Shown here: positions 18,861 to 26,177 of the stretch, in pieces
Layout of the letters: each line of letters opens with the position of its first letter
How positions within the stretch are numbered: position 1 is the stretch's first letter
Position numbers and translations under genes: made by a program
From: Bacteroidota bacterium
GTDB taxonomy: Bacteria > Bacteroidota > Ignavibacteria > UBA10030
Assembly: GCA_041695085.1 (NCBI GenBank)
Contig: JBGFRO010000023.1
Coordinates: 70,559-134,558, forward strand
DNA: 64,000 nt
Direction: 5' to 3'
Notes under the pieces: model-generated
What the model saw: only the letters and a program-made list of their open reading frames with translations
Databases searched by the model: none
Told to the model about the DNA's origin: nothing

Positions 18861-18876
18861 TGGCACGCCGGTTGTG
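18861..18876 (+). promoter_or_regulatory. Candidate sigma-54 (-24/-12) promoter upstream of the first pilin-like gene
   Basis: TGGCACG-ccgg-TTGT at 18861-18875 against the consensus TGGCACG-N4-TTGC (one mismatch in the -12 GC). It lies about 65 bp upstream of the 18941 ATG, and a sigma-54 activator is encoded divergently next door. A similar weaker element, TGGCATG-N4-TTGA, is at 25220-25234 upstream of subunit 5. Confidence 0.3.
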
Positions 18877-18940
18877 GAACCTATGGCAGACGAAATTGAA
18901 ACTCAACCAAACAAACAATACAATCATCTTGGAGGATGTC

Positions 18941-19441
18941 ATGAAAAAGCTCGCAACGCTGTTCGCCCTTGCCGCCCTGAGCCTGTTGTTCGTCGAAGAA
19001 TCGAATGCCCAGGCTACGGCAAACCAGACCGTTCAATTGACGGTCAATGCAGTCTATAAGATTTCCACCTCCGGCAACCCCGGAGCACTGACGATCAACA
19101 ACGGCACCGCCGGTACGGATGCATTGACGTCGGTGAGCGACAACTCAACGACCTACAACATTACACAAAACGTTGGTAACACGGTGAAGGTGACGGCACA
19201 TTTGAACTCGGCTTTGCCGGCGGGATACACGTTGTCGATCAACCTGGCGAGCACGAAGGGGACAAGTGCAGGGACGGTGGATATTTCGAATGCGACGTCG
19301 GGCAGTGCAGTGGATGTAGTGACGGGGATCGGAATGGGTGCGGATGCGAACCAGACGATTGGCTACACCTTCTCGGCTCTTGCCAGTGCTGGCACGCTTT
19401 CCTCAACCAACAAGACCGTGACGTTAACCCTGACGAATTAA
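18941..19441 (+). CDS. Small secreted pilin-like protein, paralog 1 (signal peptide; SCPU/Csu-like candidate subunit)
   Basis: GGAGGA RBS then ATG; MKKLATLFALAALSLLFVEESNAQA signal peptide. The mature N-terminus TANQTVQLTVNAVYKIS alternates hydrophobic residues, and the C-terminus is NKTVTLTLTN*. Confidence 0.7.
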   Translation: MKKLATLFALAALSLLFVEESNAQATANQTVQLTVNAVYKISTSGNPGALTINNGTAGTDALTSVSDNSTTYNITQNVGNTVKVTAHLNSALPAGYTLSINLASTKGTSAGTVDISNATSGSAVDVVTGIGMGADANQTIGYTFSALASAGTLSSTNKTVTLTLTN

Positions 19442-19514
19442 CGACAGATGCTTCTCCGTTCCGTGGCAGGCCCTACGGCCTCCCACGGATCGGTGTCTGA
19501 AAAGGGCTACGATC

Positions 19515-20024
19515 ATGAAACCGGAAAGGATTTCCATTCTGCTACAGGCGTTGCTTCTTCTTGTGACGGTGCTTGCTCTCCTTGAGACGGCTCACGCGCA
19601 GGGGACGAGTGCACGCCAGGTGGTGACCCTCGAGGTTCTTGAGCTGAATCGAATCGACATAAACATGACATCTTTGACGCTCATTATACAAGACGCCAAC
19701 GCACAAGCCGGCACAACAGTCCCTGCTGCCAACTCAGACGGCGTTCTCTTCTGGATGACGAATGGAGACAACAAGAAGATCACCGTCGCCAGCAACAACG
19801 CCACCCCTCGCTTCGAATTGAAGCTGTTGGCGGCAGACGTCACGCCTCAGGCCGGCGTTCCAGTTCCGGAAATCATTTTTGACGACACCCAGACGAGGGA
19901 TTTCATAACGGGTGTAACGAAGACGTCTGGGCGTTGCCAAATTCGATACACCGCATCGGCGCCGGTCCAGGCTGGCGTCGGTCGCGAGATGTACGTCATC
20001 ACGTATACCATCACCGGAAGTTGA
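19515..20024 (+). CDS. Small secreted pilin-like protein, paralog 2
   Basis: MKPERISILLQALLLLVTVLALLETAHAQ signal peptide; mature start GTSARQVVTLEVLELNRIDIN; C-terminus REMYVITYTITGS*. Confidence 0.7.
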   Translation: MKPERISILLQALLLLVTVLALLETAHAQGTSARQVVTLEVLELNRIDINMTSLTLIIQDANAQAGTTVPAANSDGVLFWMTNGDNKKITVASNNATPRFELKLLAADVTPQAGVPVPEIIFDDTQTRDFITGVTKTSGRCQIRYTASAPVQAGVGREMYVITYTITGS

Positions 20025-24995: not shown

Positions 24996-25318
24996 ACGTT
25001 CACTGTTTCTTCTTCCGTAAGCGCTCCAACGCGCACCCCAACAAGCATTCTCCCGCCAATCATTCTCTTATCGTAGAGAGAACTCCTTCAGCGATGAAAT
25101 CTGTAGAAATTACAACGCGCGGACTGTCTCCAAATGAATCACACATCAACTGCATTGCAAATGCCCTGTAACCATTGCACTTCTTCGTTGTTTGCAAAAG
25201 GAGAGTTGATGTGTATGCGTGGCATGCTGTTTGAGAGATTGTACGAAAGAGGCTTTGATGAGCCCTCTTAAACTAAAACTTGACTCTCATCATTTGATTT
25301 GCTTATTTCGTGCCATCA

Positions 25319-25810
25319 ATGAGACCCCCCGCCACCACATCGACTCTCATTTTTCTTCTCCTCCTTCCCTTGCTGACCTACGCCCAACGGGGTGCAAGCG
25401 TTCAGCAAATCGTTACCATTGAAGTAAAACCGATCGCGAAGCTCGCCGTTTCAGGAGATCCTGCGGCGATGGTTGTTACCGATGCAGATGCAGGATCGGA
25501 ACCGGTCATGGTCACCGATGAACGGACACGTTACAGCATGGTGACGAACCTCGACGCGATGAAGATCGTTGCATCCATCGACCGCCCGATGCCGCGTGGA
25601 ACGCGGTTAATGGTGGCCTTGGGGACATCGACCGGTGTGAGCTCCGGCCTCGTGGATATCTCAACTGCATCCTCGCCCGTGACGGTGGTCGCAGGGATCG
25701 GTCGTGGCAGCGATGTCAACCAACCGATACGTTACGCGTTTGCCGCCGACGCAACCGTTGGACAGCTTGCCGCAGAATCGCGGACGATCACGTTGACATT
25801 AACCGAGTGA
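25319..25810 (+). CDS. Small secreted pilin-like protein, paralog 5
   Basis: MRPPATTSTLIFLLLLPLLTYAQ signal peptide (alternative GTG start at 25310). Mature start RGASVQQIVTIEVKPIAKLAVS; C-terminus SRTITLTLTE*, closest to paralog 1. Confidence 0.65.
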   Translation: MRPPATTSTLIFLLLLPLLTYAQRGASVQQIVTIEVKPIAKLAVSGDPAAMVVTDADAGSEPVMVTDERTRYSMVTNLDAMKIVASIDRPMPRGTRLMVALGTSTGVSSGLVDISTASSPVTVVAGIGRGSDVNQPIRYAFAADATVGQLAAESRTITLTLTE

Positions 25811-25817
25811 TTCTCGT

Positions 25818-26177
25818 ATGCGCTGCTTTCTTCATACCATGTGCCTGTTCATAGGAGTGTTCGTTGCACTTCCAAGCGACGCCGCGGCACAGGCGAAAAG
25901 TTCCGCGACGCAACGCGTGACCTTTGCAGTCTACCGAATTTCTCCCCAGCACGCTGGCGCCATCGAACACGCATCCGACAACAAGAAAGTAACCGTTTCA
26001 GCAAACGAGTCTTCTGCTGTAGAACTTCATCAAACTGCTTCATCCACTTCCTTGATGGAATCGCATTCCATCCTCCCGATTCGCCGCTCCACTCTCAAAC
26101 ATGCTGTAACTTCCGCATCGATCTTCTCACGTCCGAACAAATCGTCCTCGTGGATGGTCATCACCATCACCGAGTAA
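25818..26177 (+). CDS. Small secreted pilin-like protein, paralog 6 (shortest)
   Basis: MRCFLHTMCLFIGVFVALPSDAAAQA signal peptide; KSSATQRVTFAVYRIS; C-terminus SSWMVITITE*. Confidence 0.6.
   Translation: MRCFLHTMCLFIGVFVALPSDAAAQAKSSATQRVTFAVYRISPQHAGAIEHASDNKKVTVSANESSAVELHQTASSTSLMESHSILPIRRSTLKHAVTSASIFSRPNKSSSWMVITITE

Follow-up and report, generated by a model that had tools for sequence, protein, structure and literature searches.

A candidate chaperone-usher-like surface fibre locus, orphan by sequence, in Ignavibacteria and other bacteria

A segment of 64,000 nucleotides from a Bacteroidota bacterium of the Ignavibacteria (GTDB UBA10030; GenBank assembly GCA_041695085.1, contig JBGFRO010000023.1, positions 70,559 to 134,558 of the forward strand), here called the window, carries between 18.9 and 26.2 kb eight co-directional and closely packed genes on its plus strand, as given by the list of open reading frames (ORFs). 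These genes probably encode machinery that assembles a fibre (pilus) at the outer membrane in the manner of the chaperone-usher pathway. Six of them code for small secreted subunits (S1 to S6), one for a candidate periplasmic chaperone (CH) and one for a large outer-membrane protein (US), with CH and US placed between S4 and S5 (Table 1). Judged from predicted structures the locus is chaperone-usher-like, whereas by sequence it is an orphan. A preliminary description of this DNA, made from its letters alone, had already proposed a chaperone-usher-like pilus with the eight genes in this order, all of which are indeed present on the plus strand. The structures predicted for US and S1, together with comparative genomics, sustain that reading, whereas the sequence family assignment that came with it finds no support. 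The same gene order was found in 81 non-redundant loci, so that the arrangement cannot be attributed to chance.

Small subunits and their conserved gene order

S1 to S5 are clear paralogues, with pairwise E-values from 1e-5 to 1e-32 in BLASTP and phmmer comparisons (2e-23 for S2 with S3, 3e-5 for S2 with S1), S5 being closest to S1 (37% identity, E 6e-32). The divergent S6 shows marginal pairwise E-values of about 0.003 with the other subunits, is drawn into the family by iterative search (jackhmmer) and has weak counterparts in at least nine related loci, where they likewise follow the post-usher subunit directly; its signal peptide and its N- and C-terminal strands are retained. The set of six paralogues originally claimed is therefore secure for S1 to S5 by direct comparison, and not for S6, which is placed only by iterative search and conserved position. 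All subunits are single-domain proteins of about 140 aa when mature, and no two-domain adhesin is encoded at the locus. Two further traits had been described correctly for all six: the signal peptides end in A-Q, with A23 and Q24 invariant in the alignment, and the chains end in strands of alternating threonine and hydrophobic residues (TVTLTLTN, VITYTITGS, TVTFTITNQ, TVTYTILAQ, TITLTLTE and VITITE). The A-Q end is not specific to the subunits, as it is shared by CH, and three of about five other secreted proteins of the window show x-Q, which fits the Q-rule of Bacteroidetes (PMC5837995). The cleavage sites are of the signal peptidase I type, without any lipobox cysteine, and each subunit has at most one cysteine and hence no CXXCH haem motif.

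The N-terminal extension of the family is conserved as Q-x-V-T-x-x-V-x-x-I. An alternating-hydrophobic strand had been ascribed to the start of every mature chain, which is the case for all subunits except S4, where a gap in the alignment removes about 13-17 N-terminal residues, including the amphipathic strand Q-x-V-T-x-x-V; only 8 residues separate the mature Gln from core position 24 in S4, as compared to 23-25 in the other subunits. The mature S1 chain, modelled with AlphaFold2 from 142 sequences (predicted local distance difference test, pLDDT, 97.5; predicted template-modelling score, pTM, 0.88), forms an eight-strand beta-sandwich of the immunoglobulin (Ig)-like type, in which mature residues 1-14 remain unpaired, taking part in no beta-ladder of the monomer. 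As modelled, S1 would thus combine an Ig-like pilin fold with an N-terminal extension. Its best structural matches in the PDB are almost all subunits of donor-strand filaments: CanX cannulae (score 7.4), CfaB (7.3), CS17 (7.1), TLP-2 (6.9), the pilin domain of PapG and a DUF1102 tube protein (6.7 each), EcpD (6.3), FimI, ABP pilin and FimA (6.2 each), the Saci_0406 thread (6.1), CsuA/B (5.7), CupE1 (5.4) and TasA (5.0), with PapH, the pilin domain of FimH, PapA, PapK and PapE as further matches. These scores are moderate, yet the enrichment of strand-exchange subunits over generic Ig domains is striking. No particular closeness to the archaic SCPU class emerged from this PDB structural comparison.

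The subunit family is large, with 1146 matches in a collection at 90% identity, and an exhaustive HMMER search with the subunit profile recovers 1628 clusters at 50% identity with E<=1e-3 (906 with E<=1e-10), every name given by a source being 'hypothetical protein'. When one genome per GTDB species was searched with the CH profile, a CH relative turned up at 112 places, of which the best 80 were kept. The gene order was analysed by annotating all ORFs of the 81 non-redundant loci with hidden Markov models (HMMs). This survey of related genomes shows that the locus is widespread, with the CH-US order and the subunits recurring throughout. Most of the loci belong to Ignavibacteria or carry the label 'Bacteroidota', the closest one coming from an 'Ignavibacterium album' metagenome-assembled genome (MAG) with 92% identity in CH; other labels are Rhodothermales, Gemmatimonadota (Longimicrobiales and Gemmatimonadaceae), Zixibacteria, Pirellulales/Phycisphaerae, Desulfobacterales, Syntrophales and Bacteriovoracaceae. 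Three loci (L054, L060 and L072) have an Ignavibacteria-like CH (49-57% identity) in MAGs labelled Synechococcus sp., Clostridia and Chitinophaga pinensis, which are probably binning errors.

Among the 81 loci, CH is followed by US wherever the contig runs far enough past CH. The distance from the predicted mature Gln to the core position is bimodal (19-35 versus 6-13 residues), which allowed the subunits to be classed as having or lacking the N-terminal strand. Directly upstream of CH, 51 subunits lack the strand and 7 have it (15 unclassified), so that a strand-less gene precedes CH in 51 of 58 classifiable loci. Among the other upstream subunits 142 have the strand and 4 lack it (7 unclassified), and after US the strand is present in 34 and absent from none (3 unclassified). 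With N for a subunit that has the strand and o for one without it, the canonical layout is N(2-4)-o-CH-US-N, and the window reads NNNo-CH-US-N plus S6. Minimal loci, found in Longimicrobiales, Zixibacteria and some Planctomycetota, consist of a single N-type subunit with CH and US, and in some loci as many as seven subunit genes encode the N-terminal strand. A single subunit able to accept a strand and not to donate one would be, by analogy, exactly what the distal end of a base-growing fibre calls for; the adhesin, likewise without an N-terminal extension, takes this position in Fim and Pap pili. As a separate observation, the locus L028 of an Ignavibacteriae MAG (positions 12-4269) has five tandem S1-type genes, some 300-450 nt apart, ahead of the usual N-N-o-CH-US, an array that could serve antigenic or phase variation or a dosage amplification of the major subunit.

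The outer-membrane protein, the candidate chaperone and their relatives

The US model (AlphaFold2, 51 homologues; mean pLDDT 88, pTM 0.59) shows two N-terminal Ig-like domains, a wide barrel and two C-terminal beta-sandwiches, an order that parallels the N-terminal domain (NTD), barrel and two C-terminal domains (CTD1 and CTD2) of the ushers. The N-terminal Ig domains, central barrel and C-terminal CarboxypepD_reg domains predicted from the letters are borne out by Pfam and AlphaFold2, to which a SPOR-like domain at the C-terminus, absent from the preliminary description, has to be added; Pfam SPOR is found in many of the homologues. As predicted, the structure is closest to usher pores with periplasmic N- and C-terminal domains. 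The top eight Foldseek matches in the PDB are full-length FimD (E 2e-15 to 1e-12, about 770-800 aligned columns), PapC follows at 5e-11 and 3e-10, and the first barrel that is not an usher is BtuB (E 2e-7). Between the ushers and any other barrel the E-values differ by about eight orders of magnitude, and the alignments span almost the entire usher.

Two other roles for US were considered and rejected. As a TonB-dependent transporter it would be expected among proteins with Plug or TonB_dep_Rec matches, neither of which it has, and the ushers score better; as an MtrB-type porin-cytochrome component it would lack its partners, no gene with haem motifs being present at the locus. Within the barrel, the most conserved stretch is US 287-345 (nt ~22857-23033), with R297, G327 and D328 invariant and D311, E312, Y313, L333, P335, L336, T337, E338 and R341 nearly so. 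It maps to the two shortest strands and the longest early loop, and could be a lumen-facing gate in place of a plug.

CH is a secreted protein without lipobox, which ends in a beta-strand motif and not in a hydrophobic helix, and by far the most conserved component of the locus (mean column identity 65%; the proteins of the window and of a Longimicrobiales MAG are 44% identical). Its Pfam matches are sub-threshold, with fn3_5 in 50 of 56 members and WxLIP_PGBD/DUF916 in 38 of 56 (residues ~34-119), the best DUF916 match having an E-value of 1.8e-4 and 19 bits, which is below the Pfam gathering score of 27.3. Ig-like as judged from these weak matches, the N-terminal domain also resembles weakly the first Ig domain of US (hhalign 42% probability, E 2.6e-4). 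An invariant insertion at residues 56-85 (YQTDY...GTN...PRSNA.W) and a conserved, long alternating strand-like motif at the end of the first domain (residues 149-165, MGIxQTIRYGIQIATHI) are candidate donor elements in this putative chaperone. WxLIP proteins have two Ig-like domains, of which DUF916 comes first; in AlphaFold2 predictions a WxLIP hairpin turns into a strand that pairs in parallel with the WxL partner and completes its open beta-sandwich (PMC10599100). By analogy, this type of strand completion is the chemistry expected of a pilus chaperone. CH itself is not a WxLIP by membership, as it has no DUF3324 match, a DUF916 match below threshold only and no C-terminal membrane anchor.

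As far as sequence goes, the locus falls outside every chaperone-usher family described, and the families that had been put forward for its proteins were not recovered. The six subunits of the window have no match in Pfam or NCBIfam, and neither they nor 142 diverse members of the family match SCPU (PF05229), DUF4402 or Fimbrial profiles, the latter members being without any Pfam family. CH has no Pfam match to the PapD profiles (PF00345/PF02753) and its PDB profile search was empty. Similarly, US does not match Usher (PF00577) in Pfam at E<=1, PF00577 is found in 0 of 58 homologues, and the Pfam and NCBIfam matches of US are CarboxypepD_reg and a weak NEW3 only. PDB sequence and profile searches with CH, US, S1 and the family profiles returned nothing. 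Reference profiles were built from the E. coli fim operon and the plasmid mrk, pef, caf1, fae, Serratia and Pantoea operons. Compared with these by hhalign, the CH family reaches a 2.9% probability with a profile of 8 chaperones, the US family 3.5% with 7 ushers and the subunit family 9.5% with 13 pilins, and no significant similarity was obtained by hhalign with single FimC, FimD or FimA. The low-probability alignments fall at analogous positions (the first strand of the chaperone, the last strand of the pilin), which is not evidence of kinship.

Such a lack of any link to a chaperone-usher family in Pfam, NCBIfam, PDB sequences or hhalign weighs against a fibre assembly system, and so do several properties of the US model. 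Its Foldseek TM-scores to FimD are low (0.25-0.36), as may be expected for a multi-domain model with a pTM of 0.59, and the highest target-normalised TM-score (0.45) is to the 26-strand MtrB. FimD and PapC carry a plug domain between strands 6 and 7 of the barrel. The US model shows neither a 24-strand barrel nor an inserted plug, its barrel loops (DSSP of the model, residues 254-699) being of about 13 residues at most. Moreover, all the loci come from MAGs, and the proposed fibre system is known from sequence alone.

Regulation and neighbouring genes

Divergent from the pilus operon lie the genes of a histidine kinase and of a sigma-54-dependent response regulator, the kinase being the probable partner of the regulator and the latter the probable activator of the locus. 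Sites resembling sigma-54 -24/-12 promoters precede S1 and, in a weaker form, S5, as well as the divergent genes, where TGGCACAGGCCTTGCG, with one mismatch to TGGCAC-N5-TTGCW, may also function as a promoter. The start of S1 is an ATG with GGAGG 6 nt upstream, and a longer S1 ORF from a TTG at 18860 is unlikely; the spacer between US and S5 is 314 nt. Kinase and regulator genes are found in L001 in the same arrangement as in the window, and a sigma-54 activator lies at most 4 kb upstream in 22 of the 42 loci with enough flanking sequence. L001 and L003 each have such an activator, and one adjoins the Longimicrobiales locus. The relaxed motif TGGYAY-N5-YTGY precedes 31 of 231 subunit genes, including those of the closest relative L008, against about 6 expected (about five-fold). 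Nearly all of these sites are located 140-185 nt before the mature Gln codon, mainly ahead of the first subunit gene and of the post-usher subunit gene, and L041, L045, L047 and L078 have better sites than the window upstream of the latter. Scans of the locus for intrinsic terminators and sigma-70 promoters stayed at background level. All in all, control of the locus by sigma-54 is likely.

Signalling genes are unusually dense around the locus. A PAS/GAF histidine kinase and a LuxR-type response regulator are encoded immediately upstream of the sigma-54 regulator pair, and two overlapping genes for stand-alone receiver domains lie between the pilus locus and a giant ORF. The receiver-gene neighbourhood is not kept in L001, where the downstream gene codes for a SASA-domain protein without receiver domain. 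The giant ORF comprises about five very similar repeats of ~850 aa, rich in T, S, G and N; it has weak G8/Amnionless-like matches only and no sorting domain of the type IX secretion system (T9SS) in its last 299 residues, and its product is probably a huge surface adhesin. Further downstream, a 1739-aa ORF ends in a T9SS type A sorting domain (TIGR04183, 32.5 bits versus a cutoff of 23) and also contains FlgD_ig, which agrees with the earlier statement that the genome bears a T9SS. In the region of this ORF the G+C content is raised to 0.59, and identical 16-mers at 47619 and 48594 suggest an internal tandem repeat of ~975 nt. A G+C peak of 0.617, as compared to ~0.53 in the neighbouring sequence, occurs at 4001-6000 of the window together with a strong positive AT skew.

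Table 1. Features of the pilus locus and its surroundings (window nucleotides, except for US domains, which are given as US residues)
Feature	Position	Strand	Description
S1	18941-19441	+	166 aa; secreted subunit with N-terminal strand
S2	19515-20024	+	169 aa; paralogous subunit with N-terminal strand (alignment and pairwise E)
S3	20178-20681	+	167 aa; paralogous subunit with N-terminal strand (alignment and pairwise E)
S4	20678-21169	+	163 aa; paralogous subunit without N-terminal strand; overlaps S3 by 4 nt
CH	21178-21990	+	270 aa; secreted, highly conserved all-beta protein; candidate periplasmic chaperone
US	21999-24995	+	998 aa; usher-like outer-membrane protein
S5	25310-25810	+	166 aa; paralogous subunit with N-terminal strand
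S6	25818-26177	+	119 aa; shortened, divergent family member
US signal peptide	1-30		
US Ig-like domain 1	33-135		
US Ig-like domain 2	141-244		
US barrel	~254-699		~26 consecutive beta-strands, short loops
US beta-sandwich	704-800		CarboxypepD_reg
US beta-sandwich	814-891		CarboxypepD_reg
US linker	~897-920		disordered
US SPOR-like domain	924-997		beta-beta-alpha-beta-beta-alpha
Response regulator, sigma-54-dependent	16411..17784	-	receiver + Sigma54_activat + HTH_8; Sigma54_activat E 2e-71, Response_reg E 7e-26 (Pfam)
Histidine kinase	17812..18576	-	HisKA + HATPase_c; HisKA E 2e-16 (Pfam)
Sigma-54 -24/-12-like site TGGCACAGGCCTTGCG	18618..18633	-	upstream of kinase and regulator genes
Sigma-54 -24/-12-like site TGGCACGCCGGTTGTG	18861..18876	+	65 nt before S1 ATG
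Weaker sigma-54-like site TGGCATGCTGTTTGAG	25221..25236	+	upstream of S5; read from sequence
PAS/GAF histidine kinase and LuxR-type response regulator	12904-16339	+	kinase of 917 aa
Stand-alone receiver gene	26521-26991	+	overlaps the next
Stand-alone receiver gene	26979-27383	+	
Giant ORF	27418-41325	+	4635 aa
ORF with T9SS sorting domain	45094-50313	+	1739 aa

Fibre assembly, alternatives and relation to known systems

If the locus works like a chaperone-usher pathway, assembly would start with the Sec-dependent export of the subunits, CH and US, followed by cleavage by signal peptidase I. Each subunit would be an Ig-like domain preceded by its first ~13 mature residues as a free amphipathic strand. 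CH, as a two-domain beta protein, would bind the subunits in the periplasm, cap their open sandwich and deliver them to the Ig domains of US, a wide barrel of ~26 strands that would be tied to the peptidoglycan by its SPOR domain. Polymerisation through US would then proceed with each incoming subunit inserting its N-terminal strand into its predecessor. Because it has no donor strand, S4 would enter first and end at the distal tip, which makes it a candidate tip subunit; S3 and S2 may act as adaptors, and S1, the probable major subunit, may make up most of the fibre. S5 and the shortened S6, transcribed separately, may lie at the base or terminate growth, and S6, with its donor strand kept and much of its body lost, might be, more speculatively, a terminator like PapH or FimI. 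The neighbouring kinase and sigma-54 activator would turn on expression from the -24/-12 promoters. The chaperone action of CH, the strand exchange, the order of assembly, the roles of S2 to S6, the gating of the channel and the shape of the product are the parts of this scheme that we infer.

As to the final product, identical machinery and strand chemistry could build a capsule-like or matrix polymer, as in Yersinia F1 (Caf1), or a tube or sheath, instead of a thin adhesive pilus. Single ~140-aa domains in all subunits, with no two-domain adhesin among them, and the loci with up to seven N-terminal-strand genes are what such a polymer would lead one to expect, but a single strand-less subunit beside the chaperone gene better fits a polar fibre with a defined tip, and the presence of several distinct paralogues suggests an ordered heteropolymer, all of which makes this alternative unlikely. 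Still more doubtful is a likeness at the level of the fold only, US being a large porin or a peptidoglycan-tied anchor, and CH and the small proteins non-polymerising Ig-fold proteins of the envelope or with binding functions. It would account for the missing sequence homology to chaperone-usher components and for a US without plug domain, and Ig-like folds are ubiquitous. However, it leaves the position-specific presence or absence of the strand in the 81 loci without obvious explanation, Foldseek prefers ushers over other barrels by the margin given above, the S1 matches are dominated by strand-exchange subunits and not by generic Ig domains, and the locus encodes neither CXXCH motifs in the small proteins nor transporter partners.

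A third proposal sees type V pilins or T9SS cargo in the small proteins and gives the barrel no part in exporting them. It can practically be discarded: it fits a member of the Fibrobacterota-Chlorobiota-Bacteroidota (FCB) group whose genome encodes at least one T9SS substrate, but the subunits are always tied to CH and US, a linkage that extends to Gemmatimonadota and Planctomycetota MAGs, and are far shorter than FimA/Mfa type V pilins, which have roughly 300-500 aa. As for type V pili, the subunits show A-Q signal peptidase I sites and single domains in place of the lipoprotein signal with lipobox cysteine, the two-domain build and the proteolytic maturation of such pilins. As for T9SS cargo, no C-terminal sorting domain (TIGR04183/PF18962) was found with NCBIfam or Pfam in any of the eight proteins, although the model does detect one elsewhere in the window.

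Compared with the classical Fim and Pap systems, the chaperone-usher-like pathway proposed here shares several pilin paralogues and a gene of chaperone size followed by one for a large outer-membrane protein; a US model that is nearest to FimD and PapC and has its wide barrel flanked on either side by periplasmic domains; a predicted pilin-like Ig fold with a free N-terminal strand in S1; and one type of subunit without donor strand, like the tip adhesins. It differs from them in the absence of detectable sequence similarity in any component, in a barrel of ~26 instead of 24 strands without inserted plug, in two N-terminal Ig domains in place of one NTD, in C-terminal domains of the CarboxypepD_reg type, in the additional peptidoglycan-binding SPOR domain, in the lack of a two-domain adhesin, in a likely regulation of the sigma-54 type and in its hosts, which are MAGs of Ignavibacteria, Rhodothermales, Gemmatimonadota and Planctomycetota. 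The archaic sigma pili, such as Csu of Acinetobacter and CupE of Pseudomonas, have in common with it single-domain subunits of ~140-160 aa with an N-terminal donor strand, several minor paralogues and a wide phylogenetic spread, whereas no SCPU match was obtained for the six subunits of the window or the 142 family members. Donor-strand fibres formed without chaperone, like those of TasA and TasA-like proteins, archaeal bundling pili, Sulfolobus threads and Pyrodictium cannulae, have no usher or dedicated periplasmic chaperone, unlike the loci described here, where CH and US are invariably linked to the subunits and no Peptidase_M73/TasA match is found in Pfam. In the case of the WxL/WxLIP (DUF916-DUF3324) systems of Firmicutes, the likeness is the sub-threshold DUF916 match in the N-terminal domain of CH, WxLIP having two tandem Ig-like domains; CH lacks DUF3324 and a C-terminal transmembrane helix, the subunits have no WxL domain, and the locus would be a diderm system with an outer-membrane pore.

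A bolder, and doubtful, possibility is that the locus represents a separate and ancient lineage of donor-strand fibres, with a chaperone of the DUF916/WxLIP type and not of the PapD type, and a plug-less, SPOR-anchored pore of ~26 strands gated by its own Ig domains. If so, it would link the WxL surface systems of monoderms and the usher-based pili of diderms, and it would mean that the assembly of strand-exchange fibres by a chaperone plus a pore arose or diversified more than once.

Type V pili and T9SS adhesins are regarded as the mainstay of the FCB group. Chaperone-usher pili have been described mainly from Proteobacteria, with archaic forms also in Cyanobacteria and Deinococcota, the FCB group not being among the reported hosts (PMC10104325), and our literature searches found no description of such a system for Ignavibacteria, Bacteroidota or Gemmatimonadota. 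With no model for these proteins in Pfam, NCBIfam or the PDB, and every member encountered named as hypothetical, this class of surface fibres would have been missed by annotation, and HMMs made from the family alignments (A3, A7 and A8) would let such loci be annotated at once. The locus would offer a natural experiment on an usher without plug, with a peptidoglycan anchor and possibly with a chaperone other than PapD, and a major class of surface fibres of abundant soil, sediment and groundwater bacteria may currently be overlooked.

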